Source: a bacterium (GTDB taxonomy: Bacteria > Bacillota_I > Bacilli_A > RF39 > UBA660). Taken from it: a stretch of 64,000 bases of DNA. This document shows, piece after piece, positions 4,194-27,259 of the stretch (positions within the stretch are counted from its first letter, which is position 1; the number at the start of each line of letters is the position of its first letter). The stretch is taken from contig JALFTB010000018.1 of NCBI GenBank assembly GCA_022779465.1, positions 8,773-72,772 on the forward strand, read 5' to 3'. A model generated the notes under the pieces. The model ran no database searches, was not told the DNA's origin, and worked only from the letters and a program-made list of their open reading frames with translations. The translations under genes and the position numbers were made by a program.

Positions 4194-5535
4194 TTTCAAT
4201 ATCTTTTTTATTATCTTTAATTAATTCTTTTATAAATATACTTGGGTTGTTTTTAGGTACTAATAAATATATATAGTTTCTAGTTCTAGTTAAGGCGACA
4301 TAAAATAGTCGTCTTTCTTCTTCATAAGGATATTCATTTTGATTAAGAATTTCAGATATTATTTGATGATCTTTAGTTTTAGTTGGCATTGAATGATTTG
4401 AGTTTTCTAAGTTTATTAAGATAACATTATCTTCTTCTAATCCTTTAGATTTATGAATTGTTAGATATTTTATTTTATCTGATAAAGTGATATTCCAAGA
4501 TAAAATATCTTTATTGTTACGTCCAAGTATTAGGATATTAGTATCGATATTATTGATTAATTTGTTTATAACTTTTGATTTATTAACATAATAAATTATT
4601 TTTATAGGTTTATTTAAATCTTTGGGACATTTAGAATTTTTTAATAGTTGATTTTTATTTTTGGCGATAAAGTTATTGGATATTGTGATAAGGGTTTGAC
4701 TATTTCGATAGTTATATTTTAATTTTATTATTTTAAGGTTGTCTATATATTTATCTAAATGAATAAATACATTTAAATTACACCCACTAAATCGATATAT
4801 TGATTGATAATCATCACCAACTGCAAATATGGTTCCGTTATTTTGATTTAAGATTGCTTTTATTAGGTTTAATCTTATTAGTGATGTATCTTGGAATTCA
4901 TCAATCATAATAAATTTATATTTTGTTTTGACTTCGTTATTATTAATTTTATTTGTGGCCATGAGGATCATGTCGTTAAAATCTACATATCCAGAAGATT
5001 TTAATTCATTATTATATATTAGGTATATTTCTAGAATAGTTAGGTAATAATCTTTTTTTATATATTTACTTTGTTTTACTAAATTTATTAGTTTATCAAT
5101 ATCGTTATTATTGCATTTATAGAGGTTTATAAAGGTCATGATAAGTTTTTTTAGATTGTCTTTGGTATTTTCAAGTAAAAGTCTTTTTATTCTTATTTTG
5201 GCTTTAAAATGGTCTTTTAAATAAGAATTAAAGTATTCATCTATAATATAACTTAGCATGTTATCTTTAGCTATTTTTAAATTGTCAGTATGTATTAAAT
5301 CTAATGATAATTTATGGAAAGTTTTAATATCAATATTATAATTAATTTTTCTTTTTAAATCATTAACTGATTCATTAGTAAAAGAGATGATTAATAATTC
5401 ATCTTCTTTGTAAATATTATTATCTAATAAGTAGTTTATTTTATTAATAATTGTAAATGTTTTACCAGAACCAGCACCAGCAATAAGTAGGGTGTTAGAT
5501 AGTGATAAAACAGCTTCTTGTTGTTCTTCATTCAT
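4177..5535 (-). CDS. compact UvrD/Rep-superfamily (helicase IV-like) SF1 helicase
   Basis: SF1 motifs in order: 'AGAGSGKTFTI' (I), 'ISFTNESVNDLKRKI' (Ia), 'MIDEFQDTS' (II), 'VGDDYQSIYRFSG' (III), 'YNYRNSQ' (IV), 'IHKSKGLEEDNVILI' (V), 'RRLFYVALTRTRNYIYLL' (VI). Only 452 aa. Confidence 0.85.
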   Translation of the reverse strand: MNEEQQEAVLSLSNTLLIAGAGSGKTFTIINKINYLLDNNIYKEDELLIISFTNESVNDLKRKINYNIDIKTFHKLSLDLIHTDNLKIAKDNMLSYIIDEYFNSYLKDHFKAKIRIKRLLLENTKDNLKKLIMTFINLYKCNNNDIDKLINLVKQSKYIKKDYYLTILEIYLIYNNELKSSGYVDFNDMILMATNKINNNEVKTKYKFIMIDEFQDTSLIRLNLIKAILNQNNGTIFAVGDDYQSIYRFSGCNLNVFIHLDKYIDNLKIIKLKYNYRNSQTLITISNNFIAKNKNQLLKNSKCPKDLNKPIKIIYYVNKSKVINKLINNIDTNILILGRNNKDILSWNITLSDKIKYLTIHKSKGLEEDNVILINLENSNHSMPTKTKDHQIISEILNQNEYPYEEERRLFYVALTRTRNYIYLLVPKNNPSIFIKELIKDNKKDIEIIHNY

Positions 5536-5584
5536 AAGTAGAATATAGTATGTTTATAAATTTAAGTCAAGAAAAAACAAGAAA

Positions 5585-8500
5585 TTAATTCTTGTTTAAA
5601 TCGATAAGTTCTTTGTTTAATAGTGAATATAAATAAATATAAGTTGGTTTATTATTTTTATTTTCAATATATTCTTTGTAACCGTTTAATTGTTTTAAGT
5701 AAGCGGGATCATTAGTATTCTTTAGTTTGTAATCTATGATGTCAATATGATCTGGGTATTCTAACATTAGATCAATGATACCAGTTTTAATTTGTTTATT
5801 ATTTTCATAAATAAATTCATATTCGTGATAAATATTTGCATCTTTAATGTTAGACATAATTTGATTGTTTAATAATCCTTGGGTTATTTCTTGTTCTTCA
5901 TTGGTTAACAGAGAATAATCTGGATTTTTAAAATCTGTATTTTCCAGGATGTAGTGCATGTGAGTTCCATATTCCATGTTAGACACTTCTGTAGGTGTTA
6001 TTAATTTATTTTCACTTTTAGAATAATGTTCTTCGTTAATAAGTTCGGAAATATATTCTTTTTCATTAACTATAATTTTATGGTTATCTTCAGTATCGAT
6101 GTTAATGTTATTTTTTTGTGAATACTTATAACCAATGTTTATTTCTGGTAAATCTATATTTTCAATATATTTATGTATATATGGATAAACTGATTCTAAA
6201 ATATCTTTGTAAGAACGATAATTTATTCTAGTTAGGTAATCAATAATACCATTTTCATCAGTAGTACAATTATCGTTTTGAATTAAATTTGTAACCATAA
6301 TCATTTTTTCTTTTGCCCTGGTTAAAGCAACATAGAACAATCTAATTCTTTCAGATATTTCATCTTTAATATAGGTTTCTTTGTTTAAGAAGTTGACAAA
6401 AGTACTTTTAAAGCCATTGTCATAATTTGGTAAAATTAATCCGAATTTTGTATTAAAGATAATTCTATTATTTAAATCCATTAAATTAAATTCTTTATGT
6501 AAACTTGGAAAATAACAAATTTTATATTCTAGTCCTTTTGATTTATGAATATTAGTAATTGTTACTGAATCGTTTTTATTTAATAGAGCTGGTATTTTAA
6601 TACTTTCTTCGTCATTAATTAGAGAATCTAAATAATCATTTACTTCATAGATAGTCATATTAACCTTATTTAATTCTTTAAATTTATTAATTAAGTTATC
6701 TAGAATTATTGAACGGTAATTAAGATTACCAGCAATAATCATTTTGTCATAAAATTTATAATCATAAATTATTTTTTTAATTATTTCTTCATTACTTAAA
6801 CTATCCAAATTTTTTGAAATATTATAAGCAATTTCATATATTTCAGATTCATTAATTTTGTTTTGGCTGATTGTGTCATAAATAGTTTGATCATCTAATT
6901 GATAAAGATAACTTCTAGCAATACTTGCAAAACAGAATCTAGATGTTTCATTAAATTTGTTATTTTTTATGTTGATAATAAATTTAATTATATTATTTAT
7001 TAGTGATGTTTCATCAGAAATCATGATATTGTCATCTTTATAGATATTGATTGGAACATTAAGAAAGTCAAATATTTTTTTGTAGGTGTCAAATGCAGTT
7101 GTACGATCAATTAAAATACAGAAATCACTATATTTGCATGGTCTTAAAGTTTTATCAAAAACTTCATAATTACTTGTTACTTTTTTCTTAATGTCATTAG
7201 CGATGATAAATGCTTCCATTTCTTCTTTAGTAAAATTAGGATCTGGCAAATAATTATATATTTCTAAATTATTATTATAGTTATTATTTCCTTCTTCAAT
7301 AAAGGTATTATTACCAAAGATTAATTGATGTTCTTTTATATAATTAGCATTACCAATATTATCATCCATAATATGATTAAATATTTGATTAATACTATCT
7401 AGTACTTCACCACGTGATCTGAAATTTTTATTTAAATCTATTTTAAAACCATTGTTTCCTTCTTTATATGCATCATATTTTATTTTGAAGATATCGGGAT
7501 TAGCGTTTCTAAATCGATAAATTGATTGTTTAATATCACCAACCATATAAACATTATTGTTTTCAATGTATTTAATGAATTGTTCTTGAACATCACTAGT
7601 GTCTTGATATTCATCAATCATGATTTCTTTGTAATAATTTTTTAATTCATTTCTAATATCTTCATTTTTATCTAATATTTCAAGAGCAAATTTACTTATG
7701 TCATTAAATTCAAATACTTGATACTCAAATTTATAAGCATTTACTTTTTGAGTTAATTTTAATAGTATTTCGATAATTACTTCAGCATATTCTTTGGTTT
7801 TTAATAAATCATCTTTTAATACTTGTTCATGAAATTCAGTTAATGATTTTAAGTCTTTAATTATTTTAGATATTTGTTCTTTATAATATTTTGCTTTATC
7901 AGAAGCATTTCTTAAAGGTGATAATTTAAAATCTAAGTTGCTTCTTATTTCTTGATAATTAGAACTTTTAAGTAGTGGTTCTAAAGTTTTATAAATTTTG
8001 TCATAATAATCGCTGTCTACTTCAAAAGATAAGTTTAGTAGTAGGTTCTTGATAGATTCAACTCTTTTTAAAAGGATATTTTCAAACTGATGGAAAAGAT
8101 TATCTAAATTATTTTTATTATAGTATGATTCTATATAATTATTTAAATAATCTTCTTTTTTAGTTATTAGATCAAAAGAATAGTCTAAATTTAAAATTGT
8201 TTTTTTGGTTTGTCTAGCATTTTTAGTTCCGAAGTCAGTAACGAACTTGATAAATTTTTCATTCTTTTGAGTAAATAATTCCTCAAATATTTCTTCAATA
8301 AAATCTTTCTTTTTCTTTTTAATGATAGATGAATCAATTAATGTAATATCTGAATCTAAATTTAATAAATAGTGATATTTTTTTACTAGTGACAAGACAT
8401 AGGCATCAAAGGTTGTAATATCAGCTGAATCGGTGAGTTTAGCTTCATTTTTGATTTCTTCATCTTCTAGAATTGCTTTTTTAATTCTGGTTTTCATTTC

Positions 8501-18311: not shown

Positions 18312-18352
18312 ACTTTTTTATATAATATATTTTATCTTTATAGGTGAGAAGT

Positions 18353-19660
18353 ATGAAATTAGTAGAAAGAGCACTTAGTTTTACAATTAGAGCACATGAT
18401 GGACAATATCGTAAACATGATAAGGATACACCTTATGTTTTTCATCCAATGGTTGTTAGTTTAATTTTAAAAACTGCTGACTTTGATGAAAAGGTTATTG
18501 CTGCGGGATTACTTCATGATGTAGTTGAAGATACAAGATATAATATTGATGATATATCTAAACTTTTTGGTGGAGAAATTGCTAGTTTAGTGATGACTGC
18601 TACTGAACCTGATAAATCTTTACCTTGGAAAGAAAGAAAAAAACAACAAATTAAAGTAATAAAAGATTTACCAGTAGCTAATAAAGCAATTGTATGTGCT
18701 GATAAAATAGCTAATTTAGAAGATTTAAGAATTCAATTAAGAAAAAATGGATATATAGATTTTTCGGTTTTTAAAGCAGATCGTAATGAACAAGAATGGT
18801 TCTTTAGAAATGTTTATAATGCTTTAAGTGAAAATAATAATGATGAAAGAATAAGTATTTTGTTAGAAAGATATTTAAATGTTTTTTATGATGTGTTTTA
18901 TGGTCTTAGTATAGTTGATCCTGATTATTATGATAATAGAAATAGAATATATGATAATCTTAGAACTAAGGGATATCTTGAAGAATTAACTAAATTAAAA
19001 GATGTTATTCAAGATAATAAACCTTATGTTATTGAGTTTACAGGAAGTCCTAGTGTTAGAGGTTCTTCAATAAGAATGTTGGAAGATTTCTTTGAAGATG
19101 CTAAATTTAGAGTTAAAGTTACTGATGAAGAAGAAAAAATTGGTAGATATACGACAGAGTTTTTATCTAATCCTAAAAGTTTATCTTTAGTAGAAAAGAA
19201 TTTACTTATAGCATCTGCTATAAAAGAAGATTTAATGAAAGATATTGTTGGAGATCAAAGTATTATTATGGCTAATGGGGCTTTATTTGAAATATTAAGT
19301 TATGTTAAATTATTAGCAAATAAAGGCGTTATTAGTGACAGAGATTTTATGATATTCTTTGCTGAATATGCTGAAGATTTAGATAAGATGATTAATCATG
19401 TTGTTGTTTGTTATAACAATCCAATAAATTTAAAGAGTAATAGAAGTGAAATATTAACAAAATCAGATAGTATGGTTGATTATAGTGAAGCTATTTCTCA
19501 GTGTGAAGCATTAATTAGTGGTTCTACAGTTGTTGATATGACTAAAATTAATCCTAATGATGCAACTTTAATGGTAGCAAGCTCACTTTTACCTATTATG
19601 CGCAATGAATACGTACTTAGATTAAAATCATTTTTAGAACAAAAAAAGAATCAATTTTAG
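18353..19660 (+). CDS. HD-domain (RelA/SpoT-type hydrolase-like) protein fused to a degenerate P-loop-like domain
   Basis: 'GQYRKHDKDTPYVFHPMVVSLIL...AAGLLHDVVEDT', 'FGGEIASLVMTATEP' and 'CADKIANLEDL' match the (p)ppGpp hydrolase HD module. The C-terminal ~240 aa start with 'YVIEFTGSPSVRGSSIRMLEDFF'. ATG 18353 follows an AGGTGAG RBS. Confidence 0.75.
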   Translation: MKLVERALSFTIRAHDGQYRKHDKDTPYVFHPMVVSLILKTADFDEKVIAAGLLHDVVEDTRYNIDDISKLFGGEIASLVMTATEPDKSLPWKERKKQQIKVIKDLPVANKAIVCADKIANLEDLRIQLRKNGYIDFSVFKADRNEQEWFFRNVYNALSENNNDERISILLERYLNVFYDVFYGLSIVDPDYYDNRNRIYDNLRTKGYLEELTKLKDVIQDNKPYVIEFTGSPSVRGSSIRMLEDFFEDAKFRVKVTDEEEKIGRYTTEFLSNPKSLSLVEKNLLIASAIKEDLMKDIVGDQSIIMANGALFEILSYVKLLANKGVISDRDFMIFFAEYAEDLDKMINHVVVCYNNPINLKSNRSEILTKSDSMVDYSEAISQCEALISGSTVVDMTKINPNDATLMVASSLLPIMRNEYVLRLKSFLEQKKNQF

Positions 19661-19667
19661 ATTCTTT

Positions 19668-19931
19668 TTATTTGTTAGTATTTTCGTAATAATTTCTTTC
19701 GGATAGTTCATCTAATACTTGTTCAAGTTCTTCATCAAGTGTATCTTCATAAACCTCTTCAGCTTCATATATAATATCGTGAAGAGATGCGACTGTCTGT
19801 AAATCTATGCCATTTCTTGTTAATACATCTATTTGATATTTAGTTAAAACTAGATTATCATTTACTTTTTGAAGTTTATTACTTTCAAAATCTAGTTGAG
19901 AGACTAATTCATTTATATCATATTTTTCCAT
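19668..19931 (-). CDS. hypothetical small acidic protein
   Basis: 87 aa with an acidic C-terminal half 'EAEEVYEDTLDEELEQVLDELSE'. Its ATG shares one base with the stop of the upstream 58-aa ORF. Confidence 0.6.
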   Translation of the reverse strand: MEKYDINELVSQLDFESNKLQKVNDNLVLTKYQIDVLTRNGIDLQTVASLHDIIYEAEEVYEDTLDEELEQVLDELSERNYYENTNK

Positions 19932-20107
19932 TAAATAAACTTAAAGATATCAATGTATCCTTTACTTTCTAGTAAATAGATAATACCAGCGATTATTAAA
20001 ACAAATAACATAACAAATAAGAAACCAACGAATGCATTTCCTTTCTTTTGTTTTGGCATAGCTTCTTCTACAACAATTCTTCTTTTTAATTTATTATCAT
20101 CTGCCAT
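19931..20107 (-). CDS. unlisted 58-aa membrane protein (single C-terminal-half TM)
   Basis: Hand translation: MADDNKLKRRIVVEEAMPKQKKGNAFVGFLFVMLFVLIIAGIIYLLESKGYIDIFKFI. AAGGAG lies 8 nt upstream of ATG 20107. Fills the gap between two co-directional genes. Confidence 0.55.
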   Translation of the reverse strand: MADDNKLKRRIVVEEAMPKQKKGNAFVGFLFVMLFVLIIAGIIYLLESKGYIDIFKFI

Positions 20108-20120
20108 AATTATTCTCCTT

Positions 20121-20894
20121 TTATTTCATTATTTTTTTTACTTCTTTTTTAAATTTTTTAGGGTTTACTTTATATAATAAAACAGCTCCGACTAAAACAA
20201 TTGCAATTTCTGTCCAACTTATTTTTTTGTTATATTTAGCTGTTAGAGTAAGATTTGAAGTTATCTTAGTATCAAAATCAAATTCTTTATCATTTAAATA
20301 CCAACCTTCAAAATTGTATCCTTCTTTGGAAACACTAAGGGGAGTTACTAATTCGTTTTCGTTAACTTTAACTTTAGTTTCATCATTGTCATCTATAAAG
20401 GTAACAATGTATGTTTTAGCAGTATAATCTTTCCATAATCCCTTTTTTTCATTTTTAGCTTCTTCTTCAATTTTTTCTAATTCATCTAAATAAGAATATT
20501 TGCCATAAACATATTTGATTTGGGCATAACCTATTTCTAATAATTCTTTTTGAAGAAGTGAATTATCAACCCATACCCAGGCAAGGGTTCTTCCATACTT
20601 ATCTAATTTTGTGCTTTTTGGATCGTATTCTAATTCGATTTTTTTAGCATTAGTAATTTTTTTACATGTATATTCACTAGCGTTTTTTCCATAAGGTTGT
20701 TCTTTTTTAGTAGGATGAACTGTTTCTGGTGTATCGATAGCTAGAAATCTTACTTTGATATCTTCATTATTAACTGTAAATACAGCAGTATCACCATCAA
20801 CACATTTTTTAAATTTAACAGTTTCTTTTTCATTTGCATATACATTTGCAGTAAATGTTAAAAAAGCACATATTATCAACATTATTTTTTTCAT
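20121..20894 (-). CDS. secreted thermonuclease (SNase family) with Listeria-Bacteroides repeat and C-terminal TM anchor
   Basis: Signal peptide 'MKKIMLIICAFLTFTANVYA'. SNase motifs 'VDGDTAVF' and 'RFLAIDTPE'. 'YIVTFIDDN...EGYNFEGWYLNDKEFDFDTKITSNLTLTAKY' matches the Flg_new repeat. Terminal TM 'IAIVLVGAVLLY'. Confidence 0.85.
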   Translation of the reverse strand: MKKIMLIICAFLTFTANVYANEKETVKFKKCVDGDTAVFTVNNEDIKVRFLAIDTPETVHPTKKEQPYGKNASEYTCKKITNAKKIELEYDPKSTKLDKYGRTLAWVWVDNSLLQKELLEIGYAQIKYVYGKYSYLDELEKIEEEAKNEKKGLWKDYTAKTYIVTFIDDNDETKVKVNENELVTPLSVSKEGYNFEGWYLNDKEFDFDTKITSNLTLTAKYNKKISWTEIAIVLVGAVLLYKVNPKKFKKEVKKIMK

Positions 20895-21015
20895 AAAAAC
20901 CTCTATAATAATAATAACCTTAAAAAGTATTTGATATCAAGTGTATTTACATTTTTTATTATTTCATAGATATAGATTTTATGATACAATATTTTAGAAT
21001 AGTGGGTGTATATAA

Positions 21016-22281
21016 ATGGCTGTGATAGATACATTTTTAAATAAATTACAAAGACTTATAAATGTTGCCGATAGTGTTAAAACTAATAAAGCAATAAATC
21101 GTAATGCTAGTTTAGAAATAGAGAATGTTTTATATGCTAATGGAATTACTGGTGAGGTTTCATATGATGATTTACTTACTTTAAAGAAAAATGATTTAAG
21201 AACTATTTTTAAAGCTATGTATAGTGAAAAGTTTGAGTCTGAATATAATAGATTTATGTCTAAAAGAGCAATAATTGATGAATTTAGAAATATTTCTTTA
21301 TCCCATGTTGGTGCTTTTGAACCAAAAGAATATAGTGGAGCAATGGATTATATTAGTGATTTTGCTAATAAATTAAATGAATTTTTAAGTAGCAATAAAG
21401 CTAATGATGTTTCTATTGGAAATGATTTATATAAAAAATATTTAAATATGTTTAGAGGAAATAAGTTAGTTGTTCCAGTTACTGATTTTGATGAATTTGA
21501 TAGCTTACTTGATTCAATGAAATTTTCTGATAAAGAATCTGGAGATATTAAAATGTTTGTTGGACTTGGCAATATTGAATTACTTCTACCGGATGATAAA
21601 GATGAATTAACTGTTCTTAATAAGTATGAAATTATTTTAAAAAATAAATATAGTAAGTATAAAGACACTATTGTTTTGCTTAAGGGCGAAAGTTTTTCAT
21701 TGGATACTTTTGATGAATCTTTAGATAAAATTAAAGGTAGATTGAATGTTAATTCTGATGATGTTAGACAAGCTATGTGTTGTGTTTTACTTGGTAAAAA
21801 AATATCTGAATACAAGGATGTTTCAGCTAAAAAGGATATGCCTGCAAATATTAAAGAAGAGTATTTAAGTTCTTTAGAAGAAGAATTAGATAAAATTACA
21901 ATTAAGTCTAGAGAACAATCATCTAAAAAGGAAGAAACTAAAGATGAGGTTAAACCTGAAATAAGTAGAGATCCAGTTTTAGATGAAGTGGAAAATATAA
22001 TTAGTTCGGAAAAGGCTTTAATTGATAGTGTTAATTTTGATGATTTAAATATGTATCTTTTTGAAGGAATTAAAGAACAAAGTGAAGAAACGATTGGATA
22101 TAGAATTGTTTCAGTAATAACTGCTTTATATAGTGAGATGGAAAAACTTAATAATTTTACAGATACACCATCAGTGTATAATGCTTGTTTAAATAATATT
22201 AAAGAATATGTTGATGCTTATCATAAGTTAAAAGAAGAACAAAAAGGTTACTTGGTTAAGAAACAAAGTATAAAGAAATAG
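21016..22281 (+). CDS. hypothetical protein, first gene of a 3-gene unknown operon
   Basis: 421-aa ORF with no recognised catalytic motif and a central K/E-rich linker. The next gene starts 13 nt downstream. Confidence 0.65.
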   Translation: MAVIDTFLNKLQRLINVADSVKTNKAINRNASLEIENVLYANGITGEVSYDDLLTLKKNDLRTIFKAMYSEKFESEYNRFMSKRAIIDEFRNISLSHVGAFEPKEYSGAMDYISDFANKLNEFLSSNKANDVSIGNDLYKKYLNMFRGNKLVVPVTDFDEFDSLLDSMKFSDKESGDIKMFVGLGNIELLLPDDKDELTVLNKYEIILKNKYSKYKDTIVLLKGESFSLDTFDESLDKIKGRLNVNSDDVRQAMCCVLLGKKISEYKDVSAKKDMPANIKEEYLSSLEEELDKITIKSREQSSKKEETKDEVKPEISRDPVLDEVENIISSEKALIDSVNFDDLNMYLFEGIKEQSEETIGYRIVSVITALYSEMEKLNNFTDTPSVYNACLNNIKEYVDAYHKLKEEQKGYLVKKQSIKK

Positions 22282-22294
22282 AAAGGGTTATGTT

Positions 22295-23722
22295 ATGGAT
22301 TATTTATTACATTTAATTGATGAAACTACATCTCATTATGATGATAAAGATAATGAATATATGCAAAATGATGTTAATTTAACTAATATAAAAAATGTTA
22401 TTAAATTAGCCGATAGTGATCCTTTATATAAATATGAATTTATAACTCTTTTAGGGGATGACTTTTTATCTTTAATGGTTGATCAAGTACAAGAGGAAAG
22501 TGAAAGAGAATCTTTTTTAGCATCATTATTGTATTTAAAGAAATTAATGAAAATTAATAAAGAAATGGCAGATAAGATTACTTTAAATGATAATCAACAG
22601 GAAGAAATATTAAAATTACTTGAAATAATGAAGCAATATGTAAATGAAAAGGAATACTCTAATTCTGAGCAGAGAAGTTTAAATGAAGTTTATAAAAAAA
22701 ATATTCTTAAATTAAAACGTAAATTAGAAGAAAAAGAGGTTCTTAATAAAACTGATTATGAATCAGTTGGATATTTGTTATCTAAAGAATCTGATGATAA
22801 ATATAGTGAGTTAATGAGTGCAGTTAATAGATATAATTTAATACTTTTACAAGGTAATAATGTAAGTGTTAGTCAAGTAAATTATGTAGAACAAAATGAT
22901 GATGATATTAACCATAATGATAGATTATTGAGTAAATTTGATGTTAATGTTGAAAAATTTAAGAAAGAATATCCAGTTTTCTTTTTAGAAAGTTACCAAG
23001 TAAATAATCGTAAGATGGATTTATTAGAAGATAATGGGATTGATATAAATGAAGTTTTAAAACATGCTCCTAAATTATTACTTAGTCCATATTATTTATT
23101 AGAAAAGAATATGACTATTATGAAGTCTTATGGATTTGATTTATCTTGTGAGGAAGATAAGTCCAATTATGTTGTTTTGGGAACAGGTAATTTGGATTTA
23201 GCTTTAGATTATTTTATTGAACTTGGATATAATGATTTTATTCATAAAGATGTAAAGAACTGTTTAAAAAATTTAAGAGCTTTAATAATTAAACGTATAT
23301 ATTATGCATATAAGAATAAAATAAATATTTGGAGAATTGACGGTACAAATGTAGAAATGTTAAGTAATCGTGAAAAAAATAAGGATTATGATAAATTAAT
23401 CAGAGAACAGGCTACCGCACTTGATGAAGAAACTATTGATGTATTAATATCTAAATATCCGATATTAGAAGGTATAGATGCTTCTCATCGTGCTTATATA
23501 TTTAAAGATAGTTATAATGCAGCGATTAAAAGAAAGACTGAACTTATTTTTGGAAATAAGATTATTTCTAGAATTAAGACTTATAGTTTATTTAAAGTAT
23601 TAGTTGAAAATAATGTTAATGTTCAAGAAGCTTTGCTATATGCTTTATCTTATAATACGATTTTAGATCAAAGTGAATATGATAATTTAAAATCTGTTGT
23701 TTATTTTAAGGAGGCTAGGTAA
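22295..23722 (+). CDS. hypothetical helical-repeat protein (mTERF-like repeats, tentative)
   Basis: Repeats such as 'KMDLLEDNGIDINEVLKHAPKLLLSPYY', 'LLEKNMTIMKSYGFDL' and 'LALDYFIELGYNDF'. See findings. Confidence 0.65.
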   Translation: MDYLLHLIDETTSHYDDKDNEYMQNDVNLTNIKNVIKLADSDPLYKYEFITLLGDDFLSLMVDQVQEESERESFLASLLYLKKLMKINKEMADKITLNDNQQEEILKLLEIMKQYVNEKEYSNSEQRSLNEVYKKNILKLKRKLEEKEVLNKTDYESVGYLLSKESDDKYSELMSAVNRYNLILLQGNNVSVSQVNYVEQNDDDINHNDRLLSKFDVNVEKFKKEYPVFFLESYQVNNRKMDLLEDNGIDINEVLKHAPKLLLSPYYLLEKNMTIMKSYGFDLSCEEDKSNYVVLGTGNLDLALDYFIELGYNDFIHKDVKNCLKNLRALIIKRIYYAYKNKINIWRIDGTNVEMLSNREKNKDYDKLIREQATALDEETIDVLISKYPILEGIDASHRAYIFKDSYNAAIKRKTELIFGNKIISRIKTYSLFKVLVENNVNVQEALLYALSYNTILDQSEYDNLKSVVYFKEAR

Positions 23723-24012
23723 TGGAATATTTAAAAGATTATGTTTCATCTGAAGTGTATGAAAAGTTAATTAGTTTACTTAGTTTAGATGTGCAAAGTT
23801 CTTTATCTAAAAATAAAGATAATATTATAAAAATATTTAAATATTTTAAGAGTATTGGTATTAATAAGTTTGATGATTTATTATTATTTAGATGTGATTT
23901 GTTGTTTGAAGATGTTGAATCTTTAAAAGATAAAATTAATAAAATGGATACTTCTTTTGTGAGTTTTATTATACAAAATGATGTGGGAAACTTAATAAAT
24001 TTGGGTATATAA
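23722..24012 (+). CDS. hypothetical small helical-repeat protein (mTERF-like, tentative)
   Basis: AAGGAGG RBS. ATG overlaps the upstream TAA (TAATG). Contains 'IIKIFKYFKSIGINKFDDLLLFRCDLLFEDVESLKDKI'. Confidence 0.65.
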   Translation: MEYLKDYVSSEVYEKLISLLSLDVQSSLSKNKDNIIKIFKYFKSIGINKFDDLLLFRCDLLFEDVESLKDKINKMDTSFVSFIIQNDVGNLINLGI

Positions 24013-24040: not shown

Positions 24041-24067
24041 TTAGCACTTATACTTGACAAGTGCTAA
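24041..24067. promoter_or_regulatory. second CIRCE-type operator TTAGCACTT-N9-AAGTGCTAA
   Basis: Arms identical to the element at 14438-14464. The spacer again carries TTGAC. Confidence 0.8.
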
Positions 24068-24082
24068 TTAAAGTAGTATAAC
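24054..24082 (+). promoter_or_regulatory. hsp20 promoter TTGACA-N17-TATAAC overlapping the CIRCE element
   Basis: TTGACA at 24054-24059 and TATAAC at 24077-24082. Confidence 0.65.
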
Positions 24083-24110
24083 TATAATTGTGAAAGGAAG
24101 TGTGAGGATT

Positions 24111-24509
24111 ATGAATATAATCCCAAAAAGTTTTTTATTTGATGATGATTTCGACAATTTCTTCTTACCAGCAGTAAAAAGAAATAATGAAATGAAGTGT
24201 GATATTTATGAAAAGGATAATAAATATCATATTGAAATGGATGTACCTGGTTATGATAAGAAAGATATTAACATTGAAGTAAAAGATGGATACCTTACTG
24301 TAAGTGCTTCAAAAGAGCAAGAAGAAAAAGATGAAAAGAAAAATTATATTAGAAGAGAAAGAGTTTATGGATCATTTAGTAGATCATTTGCTTTAGGTGA
24401 TGTTGATATTGAAAATATTGATGCTAAATTTGATAAAGGTTTACTAACCATTATTATTCCTAAACAAGAAGTTGTCGAAAATAAGAAAAAAATTGAAATT
24501 AAAGGATAA
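24111..24509 (+). CDS. small heat-shock protein (Hsp20/alpha-crystallin family)
   Basis: Alpha-crystallin domain 'CDIYEKDNKYHIEMDVPGYDKKDINIEVKDGYLTVSA...ERVYGSFSRSFALG...DAKFDKGLLTIIIPK'. Start ATG 24111 lies downstream of the promoter. Confidence 0.9.
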   Translation: MNIIPKSFLFDDDFDNFFLPAVKRNNEMKCDIYEKDNKYHIEMDVPGYDKKDINIEVKDGYLTVSASKEQEEKDEKKNYIRRERVYGSFSRSFALGDVDIENIDAKFDKGLLTIIIPKQEVVENKKKIEIKG

Positions 24510-24537
24510 GACTAATGACTATTCATTAGTCTTTTTT
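24508..24537 (+). terminator. rho-independent terminator after hsp20
   Basis: AAGACTAATG-ACTATT-CATTAGTCTT hairpin followed by a T-run. Confidence 0.7.
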
Positions 24538-24586: not shown

Positions 24587-24662
24587 GGCCCATTGGTGAA
24601 ATGGTTAACACATAACCCTCTCAAGGTTACATTCATGAGTTCGAACCTCATATGGGTCACCA
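24587..24662 (+). tRNA. tRNA-Glu (anticodon CUC), CCA encoded
   Basis: Hand-folded cloverleaf. Acceptor GGCCCAT/ATGGGTC. Anticodon stem TAACC/GGTTA with loop CTCTCAA (anticodon CTC). T arm ATGAG-TTCGAAC-CTCAT. 3' ACCA. Backbone resembles Bacillus tRNA-Glu. Confidence 0.85.
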
Positions 24663-24672
24663 ATATGTTTAT

Positions 24673-24698
24673 AAATCCCTGTAAACAGGGATTTTTTT
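24673..24698 (+). terminator. rho-independent terminator after the tRNA
   Basis: AAATCCCTG-TAAA-CAGGGATTT hairpin followed by a T-run. Confidence 0.75.
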
Positions 24699-24783: not shown

Positions 24784-25635
24784 ATGGAAAATATTAGATT
24801 ATTATTAATAAGAATTTCAGAAAGATTATTTAAATCTTTTTCGTTATTTGGTGGAGTTAAGAATGTTAGTGATTTAACTGATAGAATTAAGGAAGCACCT
24901 AAAGAAGAATTATATCGTATAGCTGTTTATATGTTAGATTTCGCAGTTACTAATAATAAATTTTATTCTTGTAAGGACTTCTTTAATGTTTTATATGATG
25001 AAACGGTTAGAATGCTTAGTGAAAGCGAACAGTATAATGAATATTTTGTAAGTAGTATTCTTGGATATTTTAAACAAATGAATTATCCAGTGTATTTAGA
25101 TGGTTCGATGAATACTAAAGATATTAGTAAAGGTTTATGTTCTAATAAAATTAAAGTTATGATTCCTGAAGAACTAACTGAAAATGTTTTAGTTGTTATG
25201 TATGGTAAAGGTGCTAGTATTTACGAATGTGGGACACCAGTATCAATAAGTGATAATATTATTTTTGATGATTTTGATGCTTTACTTTATTTTGGAAATG
25301 GTTTTGAAATGGATATTTCTTATTATAATAAAGATAATAGTGGTAATTTGGTTACTAGAAAATATTTTAAAGATGAAAATGGCCAAATGGTTATAAATCA
25401 TGATGTTTTTAATGAGGTTAGACAATCACTTTGTTATAGTTCGGTTAGTGGAACTAATATGTTTATTGAAACTCCTGAGTTAGAATATGTTAGAGCTAGT
25501 AAAGGTGGAACGGACTATGATTTTGTTAGAATGATGCGAATAAAAGATAAGGTAAATAGGAAGAAAATAGCTGCTATTAGAAGTTTTGAAGATAATAGTA
25601 CAGTAAAGAAGGAGGATAAGACATATGGACTATAA
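24784..25635 (+). CDS. hypothetical protein
   Basis: 283-aa ORF with an AGAGGAAAAAA region before the ATG. The 3' end overlaps gltX by 11 nt. No recognisable domain. Confidence 0.6.
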   Translation: MENIRLLLIRISERLFKSFSLFGGVKNVSDLTDRIKEAPKEELYRIAVYMLDFAVTNNKFYSCKDFFNVLYDETVRMLSESEQYNEYFVSSILGYFKQMNYPVYLDGSMNTKDISKGLCSNKIKVMIPEELTENVLVVMYGKGASIYECGTPVSISDNIIFDDFDALLYFGNGFEMDISYYNKDNSGNLVTRKYFKDENGQMVINHDVFNEVRQSLCYSSVSGTNMFIETPELEYVRASKGGTDYDFVRMMRIKDKVNRKKIAAIRSFEDNSTVKKEDKTYGL

Positions 25636-27259
25636 AAAATTAGCGGATTTATTATATCCAAATGTAACTGAAACAATAGGGGATTTAGAAAAGAAATATC
25701 CAGAAAGAACTTTGCCTGCAAGTGCTGAAGTGTGTAGATTTGCACCATCTCCAACTGGTAGAATGCATATGGGTAATTTATTTGCTTCTTTTATTCCAGA
25801 AGTTATTGCTCATCAAACTAATGGAGTATTTATTTTAAGAATAGAAGATACTGATGAAAAAAGAGCAATTGAAAATGGAGTTCAACTTATTTTAGATGAT
25901 TTAAAAGCTTATAATTATATAGTAGATGAAGATCCTATTCAAGGTGGGGCATATGGTCCTTATGTACAAACTCAAAGAGCTGATATTTATCATATTGTAG
26001 CTAAGTATTTAGTTTCAATTGGAAGAGCTTATCCTTGCTTTTGTTCAGAAGAAGATTTAGCTTCTATGAGAGAAAAACAAGAGCATAGAAAAGACAGAAT
26101 AGGATATTATGGCAGTTATGCTAAATGTCGTAATTTATCTTATGAAGAAGTTAAAGCTCATATAGATAATGGAGATAAATGGGTTTTAAGATTAAAATCT
26201 ATGGGTAACTTTAATAAGAAGTTTGTATTTAAAGATTTAGTTAAGGGAACAATAGAGTTACCAGAAAATGATATGGATCAAGTTATTGTTAAATCTGATG
26301 GTATTCCTCCATATGCATTTGCTCATGTTTGTGATGATCATTTTATGAGAGTAACTACTGTTACAAGAGATGATTCTTATATTTCTTCTGTTCCTTATCA
26401 TTTAGAATTATGGAATGCTTGTGGATTTAAAGCACCTAAATTTGCTCATTTATTACCATTAAATAAAAAAGATGGAGATACAATTAGAAAGATAAGTAAG
26501 AGAAAAGATCCGGAAGCAGCAGTAGCGTTCTATCATGAAAGAGGAATTCCGGTTGAAGCAATAAAATTATATTTTGCAACTGTAATGAATTCAAATTTTG
26601 AAGGTTGGTTCTTACAAAACCAAGATAAAAGTTATAGAGAATTTACTTTTGCTTTTAATAAAATGAGTACAAGTGGTTCATTATTTGATTTAGAAAAGTT
26701 AATTAATATTTCTAAAAATTATTTAAGTAAACTAAAAGCTAGTGAAGTGTTTAATGGTTTAGATGAATGGTCAAAAGATTTTGATCCTGAATTCAACGAT
26801 TTAATTAATCAATATAAAGAATACACAATTAGTGTTTTAAATATTGAAAGAGAACAAAAGAAGCCAAGAAAAGATTTTGCTGCTTATAATGAAATAAAGG
26901 GTCAAATATGGTATATGTTTGATGAATTATTTACAGATGTTAATTATGAGTTTGGAGAAAATGATTTGAATTCTGTTAAAGAAATCATTAATAAATATAA
27001 AGAAATGTTTGATATTAATGATGATAAGGAAACTTGGTTTAATAAAATTAAGGATTTATCTGAAGAATTAGGATATGCTTCTGATATGAAAGCATATAAA
27101 GAGAATCCTGATAATTATAAAGGTAGTGTAGCTGATGTATCTAATATTATTAGAGTATCTTTAACTACTAAAACTACTACTCCGGATTTATATGAAATAA
27201 TGAAACTTTTAGGTAAAGAAAGAATTTTAAAACGTTTTGAAAATATAGCAAATATGTAA
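25625..27259 (+). CDS. gltX: glutamate--tRNA ligase
   Basis: Class I signature 'RFAPSPTGRMHMGNL' (HIGH variant) and 'KISKRKD' (KMSKS). 'ILRIEDTD' core. Confidence 0.9.
   Translation: MDYKKLADLLYPNVTETIGDLEKKYPERTLPASAEVCRFAPSPTGRMHMGNLFASFIPEVIAHQTNGVFILRIEDTDEKRAIENGVQLILDDLKAYNYIVDEDPIQGGAYGPYVQTQRADIYHIVAKYLVSIGRAYPCFCSEEDLASMREKQEHRKDRIGYYGSYAKCRNLSYEEVKAHIDNGDKWVLRLKSMGNFNKKFVFKDLVKGTIELPENDMDQVIVKSDGIPPYAFAHVCDDHFMRVTTVTRDDSYISSVPYHLELWNACGFKAPKFAHLLPLNKKDGDTIRKISKRKDPEAAVAFYHERGIPVEAIKLYFATVMNSNFEGWFLQNQDKSYREFTFAFNKMSTSGSLFDLEKLINISKNYLSKLKASEVFNGLDEWSKDFDPEFNDLINQYKEYTISVLNIEREQKKPRKDFAAYNEIKGQIWYMFDELFTDVNYEFGENDLNSVKEIINKYKEMFDINDDKETWFNKIKDLSEELGYASDMKAYKENPDNYKGSVADVSNIIRVSLTTKTTTPDLYEIMKLLGKERILKRFENIANM

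Follow-up and report, generated by a model that had tools for sequence, protein, structure and literature searches.

mTERF proteins are nucleic-acid binders made of degenerate helical repeats of ~30 aa and are found in the organelles of metazoans and plants (PMC4005652, PMC7826268). They are commonly regarded as a eukaryotic invention for the control of organelle genomes, and a 2026 survey with hidden Markov models (HMMs) found them absent from fungi and bacteria (PMC12977773). The operon analysed here, g1-g2-g3, lies at positions 21016–24012 of a 64-kb stretch of contig JALFTB010000018.1 (the window), which comes from a bacterium of the RF39 lineage and is very AT-rich (G+C about 22–31% per 2-kb segment). 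A preliminary description of this DNA had read the three products as proteins built from mTERF-like repeats, placed them in no recognisable known family and called the operon functionally undescribed. What do these genes encode, and how far does the likeness to mTERFs extend?

The open reading frame (ORF) listing places three co-directional genes for proteins of 421, 475 and 96 aa exactly as first described: g1 and g2 are separated by 13 nt, and the stop codon of g2 and the start codon of g3 have one base in common (TAATG). Conserved gene order and dN/dS show that all three are real genes. The three proteins are acidic (net charges of −15, −17 and −3 for g1, g2 and g3), and none contains a hydrophobic segment of transmembrane grade (maximum 19-residue Kyte-Doolittle mean ≤1.04). 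Scans of the single proteins against Pfam, NCBIfam, PHROGs and PADLOC gave a best match of only E ~0.02, and phmmer found no match for g2 among the PDB sequences.

The mTERF-type repeat arc of g2

The AlphaFold2 model of g2, built from 53 sequences (mean pLDDT 89.0; 90–95 in the repeat region), together with the family alignments A1, A3 and A7 divides the protein into three domains. The N-terminal domain (residues 1–187) consists of long helices (residues 2–41, 68–90, 99–145 and 167–185; pLDDT ~90–97) and is conserved family-wide; in Foldseek it returned helical-bundle matches only, all of them non-significant. Residues 203–319 form an arc of 3.5 degenerate units of ~32 aa, made up of residues 203–233, 234–265, a looser 266–299 and a partial 300–319, with a period of 31–34 residues in the model. 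The first two units each comprise a long helix followed by helices of 7 and 5 residues. The signature proline is kept in unit 1 (EYPVFF) and unit 2 (HAPKLL) and is absent from units 3 and 4. The C-terminal domain (residues 320–475) is the most conserved and the sole net-basic part of g2, carries the motifs LIIKRI..A.KN...W and RK.E..F....ISR.K, and is modelled as helices with one beta-hairpin at residues 416–425; it has no Pfam or PDB relative.

The recurring unit of ~30 aa that had been noticed in g2 exceeds chance, as a profile of the repeat region matches itself off the diagonal at a shift of 32 residues (hhalign 81%, E 1.2e-5). A family member of 621 aa does the same at a shift of ~35 residues (88.7%, E 2.6e-6), corresponding to about seven units. 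The six peptides first quoted as examples of the unit all occur in the proteins to which they were assigned. Family members range from 330 to 760 aa. In most relatives an acidic low-complexity linker and about three extra repeats stand between the N-terminal domain and the repeat region; the window g2 and its two closest relatives, the shortest full-length members seen, lack these features of the 600–760-aa orthologues (A3 columns ~200–560).

An hmmsearch with the g2 family profile against 1.84 billion representative proteins (cut-off E ≤1e-3) retrieved 151 proteins (clusters at 50% identity). A Pfam scan of the 80 weakest of them found the mTERF family PF02536 in 11. Eight mTERFs that were checked individually scored 70–162 bits on PF02536 (cutoff 23.1 bits) and had been reached by the g2 profile at E values from 7.5e-10 to 8e-4. 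Six of the eight are from Euglena, P0198 is encoded on an 877-kb contig among bacterial neighbours, and P0280 on a 2.8-kb metagenomic contig; P0240, another remote match, was discarded as a junk repetitive translation. A reciprocal HMM built only from the eight validated mTERFs and searched against the 132 window ORFs of at least 40 aa matched g2 alone (residues 208–311, 28.6 bits, E 4.8e-9 in that small set).

Profile-profile alignment gave the same picture. The g2 family aligned with the mTERF set over 209 columns (hhalign 95.9%, E 5.9e-9), and residues 203–319 aligned with the eight mTERFs at 97.0% (E 1e-10), with alternatives shifted by one repeat at 95.8% and 94.8%; controls with reversed sequences gave 0.2–0.3%. 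Identity between g2 and mTERFs is only ~10–18%. Against the PDB, a profile of 12 sequences had human MTERF3 (3M66) as its top match (E 0.0012), and a deeper profile placed eight human MTERF1 entries on top (E 6.8e-5 to 8.4e-4), above a mitoribosomal protein and designed armadillo repeats. Designed armadillo proteins and the MA3 domains of PDCD4 were weak, lower-ranked matches (E 0.007–0.1) and always stood below mTERFs.

Judged by these profile comparisons, residues 203–319 of g2 share repeat-level homology with eukaryotic mTERFs and with bacterial proteins of the pTERF type. The relationship does not extend to the whole protein. Only about a quarter of g2 is built from repeats; its N-terminal domain is ruled out as mTERF (hhalign 0.1%), as is the C-terminal domain, which had been considered as a terminal mTERF motif ('ISRIKTYSLFKVL' against 'L.PRFLYLKSLG'; 0.6%). 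g2 is not a canonical mTERF protein.

Three outcomes speak against membership in the mTERF family, the family-wide acidity of the repeat segment among them. PF02536, the Pfam family suggested for checking the initial proposal, matched none of g1, g2 and g3 at E ≤1 and none of 12 g2-family members even at E ≤10. Foldseek with the whole chain of the pLDDT-89 model, the structural check suggested alongside it, found nothing significant (best E 1.4; MTERF4 at rank 50, E 9.4), a weakness attributable to the multidomain chain and the dominance of the N-terminal bundle; with a first, poor model of g2, MTERF1 had been the top match (E 0.88, probability 0.51). Were the similarity convergent, residues 203–319 would be a generic three-helix alpha-solenoid that matches the L...G(I/F)D pattern by chance, which would suit these failed matches, the low identity, the designed armadillo repeats and PDCD4 MA3 domains lower in the PDB ranking, and the proline in only two of four units. 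The matches are nevertheless reciprocal and significant across the library (E 7.5e-10 among 1.84 billion proteins), and mTERFs, rather than TPR, PPR, HEAT, ARM or PUF proteins, head the PDB ranking with two independent family profiles. Register-shifted alignments reach 95–96% against the near-zero reversed controls, and repeat length and helix pattern agree. Composition bias also appears unlikely, since the matched mTERFs (Euglena, P0198) differ visibly from the g2 family in their amino-acid make-up. We consider convergence quite unlikely.

The repeat arc of g2 shares with eukaryotic mTERFs (PF02536; MTERF1, 3MVA/3MVB; MTERF3, 3M66; MTERF4-NSUN4) degenerate units of ~30–35 aa with two helices and a very short third, and the two have a pattern in common over ~105–210 homologous columns: a hydrophobic helix, G-(I/F/V)-(D/N/S), a second helix and P.(l)L. 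The 3.5 units of the window g2 and the about 7 of longer relatives are fewer than the ~7–9 of MTERF1. Unlike eukaryotic mTERFs, g2 is bacterial, chromosomal and operon-encoded, and its arc is flanked by two unrelated domains, is acidic rather than basic, falls below the Pfam threshold and has no significant three-dimensional match. Tandem helical repeats that form an arc are also found in PPR, PUF, TALE and HEAT/ARM-like MA3 proteins; PPR repeats (two helices, ~35 aa) and ARM repeats (three helices, ~42 aa) differ from those of g2 in length and helix number. The mTERF motif itself has been defined by a conserved proline and regularly spaced leucine or hydrophobic positions (PMC11417379, citing Roberti et al. 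2009).

Bacterial mTERF-like proteins per se are not new, since pTERFs, the first prokaryotic examples, were published from gut-metagenome Bacillota in 2024 (Nucleic Acids Res; PMC11417379). They consist of 3–11 near-identical 35-aa tandem units, carry mTERF motifs that are annotated as such and bind specific double-stranded DNA with nM affinity, and pTERF1 (MBQ3414883.1) and pTERF2 are the precedent for DNA binding by bacterial mTERF-like repeats (PMC11417379). g2 likewise comes from gut-metagenome Bacillota and has low-identity repeats related to mTERF; unlike pTERF as it has been described, it contains only a small number of strongly degenerate units in an acidic arc, has additional domains at both ends and is accompanied by g1 and g3 as presumably obligatory partners. 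The difference is illustrated by P0198 (L026 6001–7470), the match at E 7.5e-10, which has near-perfect 35-aa tandem units and 102 bits on the Pfam mTERF model, and which from its architecture appears to be a pTERF-type protein. Its gene lies beside those for UvrC, an SBP_bac_5 solute-binding protein and a holin on a metagenomic contig, and it is direct evidence of canonical mTERF motifs in bacteria.

The claim of novelty can accordingly be kept for the operon and not for bacterial mTERF-like proteins as such: we found no description of the triad or of the g2 family in the literature. g2 is an undescribed bacterial variant of the mTERF repeat family which, going by the description of pTERF, differs from the latter in degeneracy, domains, charge and operon context. 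Until now the only bacterial relatives on record have been DNA binders with engineered-looking tandem repeats; g2 presents a second, quite different bacterial use of the repeat, namely a short, degenerate, acidic arc inside a multidomain protein. The gene for this protein has a fixed place in a core-genome operon in the retrieved lineages of gut Bacilli, which are abundant but uncultured. This bears on how the mTERF fold originated and provides a first structural handle for a dark family of >150 sequence clusters without a name in Pfam, NCBIfam or the source records; it is limited by the remoteness of the homology and the lack of a structural match.

Conservation and evolution of the operon

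The retrieved homologues of g2 number 186, and none of the 120 listed has a source name or a Pfam domain. For g1 there were 13, in every case from the same species or a relative with ~70% identity. A locus scan with one genome per species yielded 22 loci, every one from metagenome-assembled genomes of uncultured gut or rumen 'Bacilli', 'Tenericutes' or 'Erysipelotrichaceae', among which GltX identity drops to ~56%. tblastn combined with ORF calling revealed a near-constant order of HD protein, small87(−), staphylococcal-type nuclease (SNase)(−), g1, g2, g3, hsp20 and gltX. ORFs occupy the positions of g1, g2 and g3 in all 22 loci, an arrangement whose loss in relatives the preliminary description would have counted against a function at the operon level. 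tblastn recognises g1 directly upstream of g2 in 21 and g3 in 18, and the conserved C-terminal motif of g3 is present in the ORF after g2 in every locus. The proteins span 268–581 aa (g1), 475–762 aa (g2) and 96–107 aa (g3), and stop and start codons overlap or are tightly spaced in most loci. No fusion involving g3 was found among 289 retrieved proteins, nor did the g1 profile match any of them longer than 450 aa.

The pattern recurs in part, and without hsp20, in four distant loci, with successive products of 583/589/95 aa in L023 (a spore-former with gpr and spoIIP upstream), 476/61/695/94 aa in L024, 320/331/140/100 aa in L027 and 386/428/99 aa in L028. The g3 HMM matches the small protein after g2 in L023, L024, L027 and L028 at E 1.7e-18, 1.8e-15, 3e-27 and 1.8e-14, respectively, and the g1 HMM matches an L027 protein at E 6e-28. 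These observations show that g1-g2-g3 is a conserved, vertically inherited operon of uncultured low-GC gut Bacilli.

At L027 (5001–6408), the g2 homologue seems to be split into overlapping genes, one for 331 aa (N-terminal domain and repeats) and one for 140 aa. The g2 HMM misses the 140-aa product, which by motif resemblance only is probably the C-terminal domain, and an organism related to L027 has a fused version of 450 aa (P0217). The split could be a true gene fission or an assembly frameshift. Near the triad of L023 (9961–12111) is a gene for a 716-aa protein of ~100-aa helical repeats with a G-Y-G...I..F motif and no Pfam match.

Comparison with the sister species L001 (Table 1) shows that the triad genes are under purifying selection, yet change at the protein level 4–8 times as fast as gltX and SNase; the dN/dS of 0.71 for g3 is noisy, as it derives from 96 codons. 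Such a rate might reflect an arms race, with the triad acting as a mobile or conflict module (defence, toxin-antitoxin or polymorphic toxin), and the confinement of the family to a narrow set of lineages and the extra variable C-terminal module of some g1 orthologues would suit this idea. The fixed position among the same core genes (SNase, hsp20, gltX) in 22 genomes largely refutes it. Moreover, neither PADLOC nor PHROG produced a match, no toxin family was matched by the extra g1 module, the triad is not flanked by an integrase, a transposase or repeats, purifying selection on g1 and g2 is clear, and the C-terminus of g2 is its most conserved part, the opposite of what polymorphic toxins display. 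A conflict module is very improbable.

Partner proteins and a possible function

The weaker repeat copies that had been reported in g1 and small87 were found neither by the mTERF HMM nor by hhalign (0.2% and 1.2%), and g1 is ruled out as an mTERF protein. It showed no Pfam, NCBIfam, PHROG, PADLOC or PDB relationship beyond noise; a 68-residue match of its profile to a conjugative coupling protein in the PDB (E 0.003) was judged to be noise, and a profile search for distant relatives returned only entries named 'hypothetical protein'. As a candidate paralogue of g2 it gave just a weak co-linear hint with the N-terminal half of that protein (13%), and no relationship to g3 was found. Several orthologues or positional equivalents of g1 carry an extra C-terminal module of ~130 aa (motif like ..IRIYYIPVGNNDTLLLGV..) that the window g1 does not have (L011 ~4580–4966 and L016 ~5470–5901; the C-terminal parts of L023 3463–5214 and L024 4396–5826). 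An impression that this module has a RelE/HigB/Gp49-like toxin fold found no support in Pfam, NCBIfam or PDB profile searches.

For g3, the proposed repeat likeness is ambiguous. Residues ~29–73 can be aligned in register to a single mTERF unit as well as to unit 2 of g2 (hhalign 45–66%, E 5.5e-5 to 2e-4), and it is plausible that g3 contains one mTERF-like unit.

Two further small genes accompany the triad on the opposite strand. small87 has an invariant C-terminal motif, ERNYYENT.K, is syntenic in most of the 22 loci and has homologues divergently upstream of g1 in L027 (E 4e-27) and L028 (E 1.7e-17). It has no known family or PDB relative; its PDB matches, designed acidic helical proteins, were set aside as composition-driven. 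Beside the small87 homologue in both distant loci is a small single-pass membrane protein (162 aa in L027, 109 aa in L028), whose conservation is positional. The pair occupies 19668–20107 (−) in the window, 3180–3897 in L027 and 3148–3719 in L028. As both are conserved divergent partners, the module may comprise five genes, and its products (the triad, small87 and the membrane protein) are a defined set that can be expressed for studies of complexes and ligands.

g1, g2 and g3, which are soluble, acidic and mostly helical, almost certainly act together. The explanation that we consider the most probable, with some reservation, is an operon-encoded complex organised on a short mTERF-type scaffold and engaged in nucleic-acid or ribonucleoprotein housekeeping. 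The acidic arc of g2 would chiefly provide a scaffold on which partner proteins dock, in the way that MTERF4 receives NSUN4, a likeness that makes it plausible that g2 works with a partner protein. Contact with RNA or DNA, if any, would be made through the basic C-terminal domain. g3 is a constant companion of g2 of ~96 aa that may add one mTERF-like unit, and g1 is a fast-evolving orphan helical protein. A scaffold is preferred to a nucleic-acid groove because the repeat segment is acidic and the positions conserved as basic in at least 80% of members (333, 334, 340, 399, 412, 426, 428 and 466) all lie in the C-terminal domain.

Charge is the reason why the nucleic-acid-binding solenoid of the preliminary description was an overstatement. 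The repeat segment has a net charge of −11 in the window g2; its mean per 100 aa is −4.0 for 53 family members and +2.7 for the 8 true mTERFs, as calculated at the sequence level; among the same 53 members, no position of the segment is conserved as basic at the 80% level. This family-wide acidity weakens the case for binding by the repeats. Several of these points weigh against the proposed housekeeping complex as well: the acidity of the segment and of g1–g3 speaks against the idea that most of their surface binds nucleic acid directly, 3.5 repeats are too few to wrap a duplex in the manner of MTERF1, and formation of a complex by g1, g2 and g3 is inferred from synteny alone. In addition, the membrane-protein partner could indicate an envelope-associated role, and no consistent functional theme was seen among the gene neighbours of the distant loci.

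The same observations can be read as a protein-protein scaffold with no nucleic-acid role, in which the repeats are a mere alpha-solenoid and the triad is perhaps a cytoplasmic assembly that small87 and the small membrane protein hold at the membrane, with a part in envelope biogenesis, cell division or, in relatives that form spores, sporulation. Besides the acidity of g1–g3 and of the arc, this reading draws on the divergent pair of neighbours that is conserved between the window, L027 and L028, on the position of the L023 triad directly downstream of gpr and spoIIP, and on the resemblance of the g2 N-terminal domain to long helical bundles. It has to contend with the basic domain with invariant K/R positions that is the most conserved part of g2, and with the fact that nucleic-acid binding is the property of eukaryotic mTERFs and of pTERF, the only proteins with this class of repeat that have been characterised (PMC11417379, PMC4005652). 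The sporulation context is confined to L023, no sporulation genes having been seen in the other retrieved loci, and library scans revealed no homology of g1–g3 to division, envelope or sporulation families. We regard a scaffold without a nucleic-acid role as the main rival, possible but distinctly less probable than the housekeeping complex.

A bolder form of the housekeeping explanation would make the five-gene module a hitherto unrecognised RNA- or DNA-handling machine of gut Bacilli with small genomes, such as a ribosome-assembly adaptor or a factor for transcription termination or pausing, and g2 an ancestral bacterial form of organellar mTERFs. This is speculative and, as a whole, unlikely; if true, mTERFs would have been inherited or acquired from bacteria and would not be a eukaryotic invention.

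Regulation and genomic neighbourhood

The hsp20 gene follows g3 in 21 of the 22 loci, that is, in all with enough DNA (L022 ends ~130 bp past g3), and the preliminary description had attached meaning to this proximity. The heat-shock promoter that it had placed there is confirmed: a CIRCE operator in the 78-nt spacer between g3 and hsp20 overlaps a TTGACA-17-TATAAC promoter (Table 1), and its assignment to HrcA follows the established CIRCE consensus TTAGCACTC-N9-GAGTGCTAA. If the triad belonged to the heat-shock response and were co-regulated with hsp20, the lack of an intrinsic terminator between g3 and hsp20 on the + strand would be expected; the first terminator-like hairpin on that strand comes after hsp20, at 24508–24533. 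The CIRCE operator is not part of the triad, and no CIRCE element lies upstream of g1. Since hsp20 has its own CIRCE-controlled promoter and the adjacency is absent from all four distant loci, the proximity is lineage-specific synteny, and we judge co-regulation with the heat-shock response to be highly unlikely.

The promoter upstream of g1 is a candidate only, because promoter-like sites in the scan were no more numerous than in shuffled sequence. No convincing operator-like inverted repeat was found upstream of g1.

Table 1 Features of the triad and its surroundings in the window, with divergence from the sister species L001
Feature	Position	Strand	Size (aa)	Identity (%)	dN	dN/dS	Remarks
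HD-domain protein	18344–19660		438				Syntenic with the triad in many relatives
small87	19668–19931	−	87				Acidic; divergent partner of the triad
Single-pass membrane protein	19931–20107	−	58				Hydrophobic segment AFVGFLFVMLFVLIIAGIIYLL; immediately upstream of small87
SNase	20121–20894	−		94	0.031	0.07	Staphylococcal-type nuclease, secreted or anchored
Candidate triad promoter	20963–20990	+					TTCATA-16-TACAAT (20985–20990); TG at 20982–20983, giving TGATACAAT (extended −10)
g1	21016–22281	+	421	70	0.217	0.25	Acidic soluble orphan; first triad gene; ORF listing
g2	22295–23722	+	475	78	0.130	0.135	Three-domain protein; ORF listing
g2 N-terminal long-helix domain	22295–22855	+					Residues 1–187; model and family alignments
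g2 mTERF-type repeat arc	22901–23251	+					Residues 203–319; 3.5 degenerate ~32-aa units
g2 C-terminal domain	23252–23719	+					Residues 320–475; most conserved, sole net-basic part
g3	23722–24012	+	96	61	0.251	0.71 (noisy)	Start overlaps g2 stop; ORF listing
CIRCE operator	24041–24067						TTAGCACTT-N9-AAGTGCTAA; in the g3-hsp20 spacer
hsp20 promoter	24054–24059, 24077–24082						TTGACA, 17-nt spacing, TATAAC; overlapped by CIRCE
hsp20	24090–24509			97	0.012	0.17	Neighbour downstream of g3
Orphan ORF	24784–25635		283				End overlaps gltX start; no family match
gltX	25625–27259			94	0.034	0.08	Neighbour gene

On the upstream side, the HD-domain protein consists of an N-terminal HD_4 domain (RelA/SpoT-type HD) and ~300 residues without a family match. 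Two features of the SNase, a Listeria-Bacteroides repeat domain and a hydrophobic segment at its C-terminus, suggest that it is an extracellular nuclease anchored to the cell surface. Among the distant loci, L028 likewise has an SNase gene close to its triad.

Downstream, hsp20 probably begins, like its orthologues, with the ATG at 24111 (MNIIPKSF...) rather than with the listed GTG at 24090. A tRNA-Glu gene (anticodon CTC; 24587–24662), the sole Rfam match in the window, lies between hsp20 and the next gene and is flanked by the hairpin behind hsp20 and another terminator-like hairpin at 24673–24694. The orphan ORF that precedes gltX evolves fast, with 59% aa identity to the sister species compared with 94% for gltX and a dN/dS of 0.31, and its synteny is limited to some relatives.

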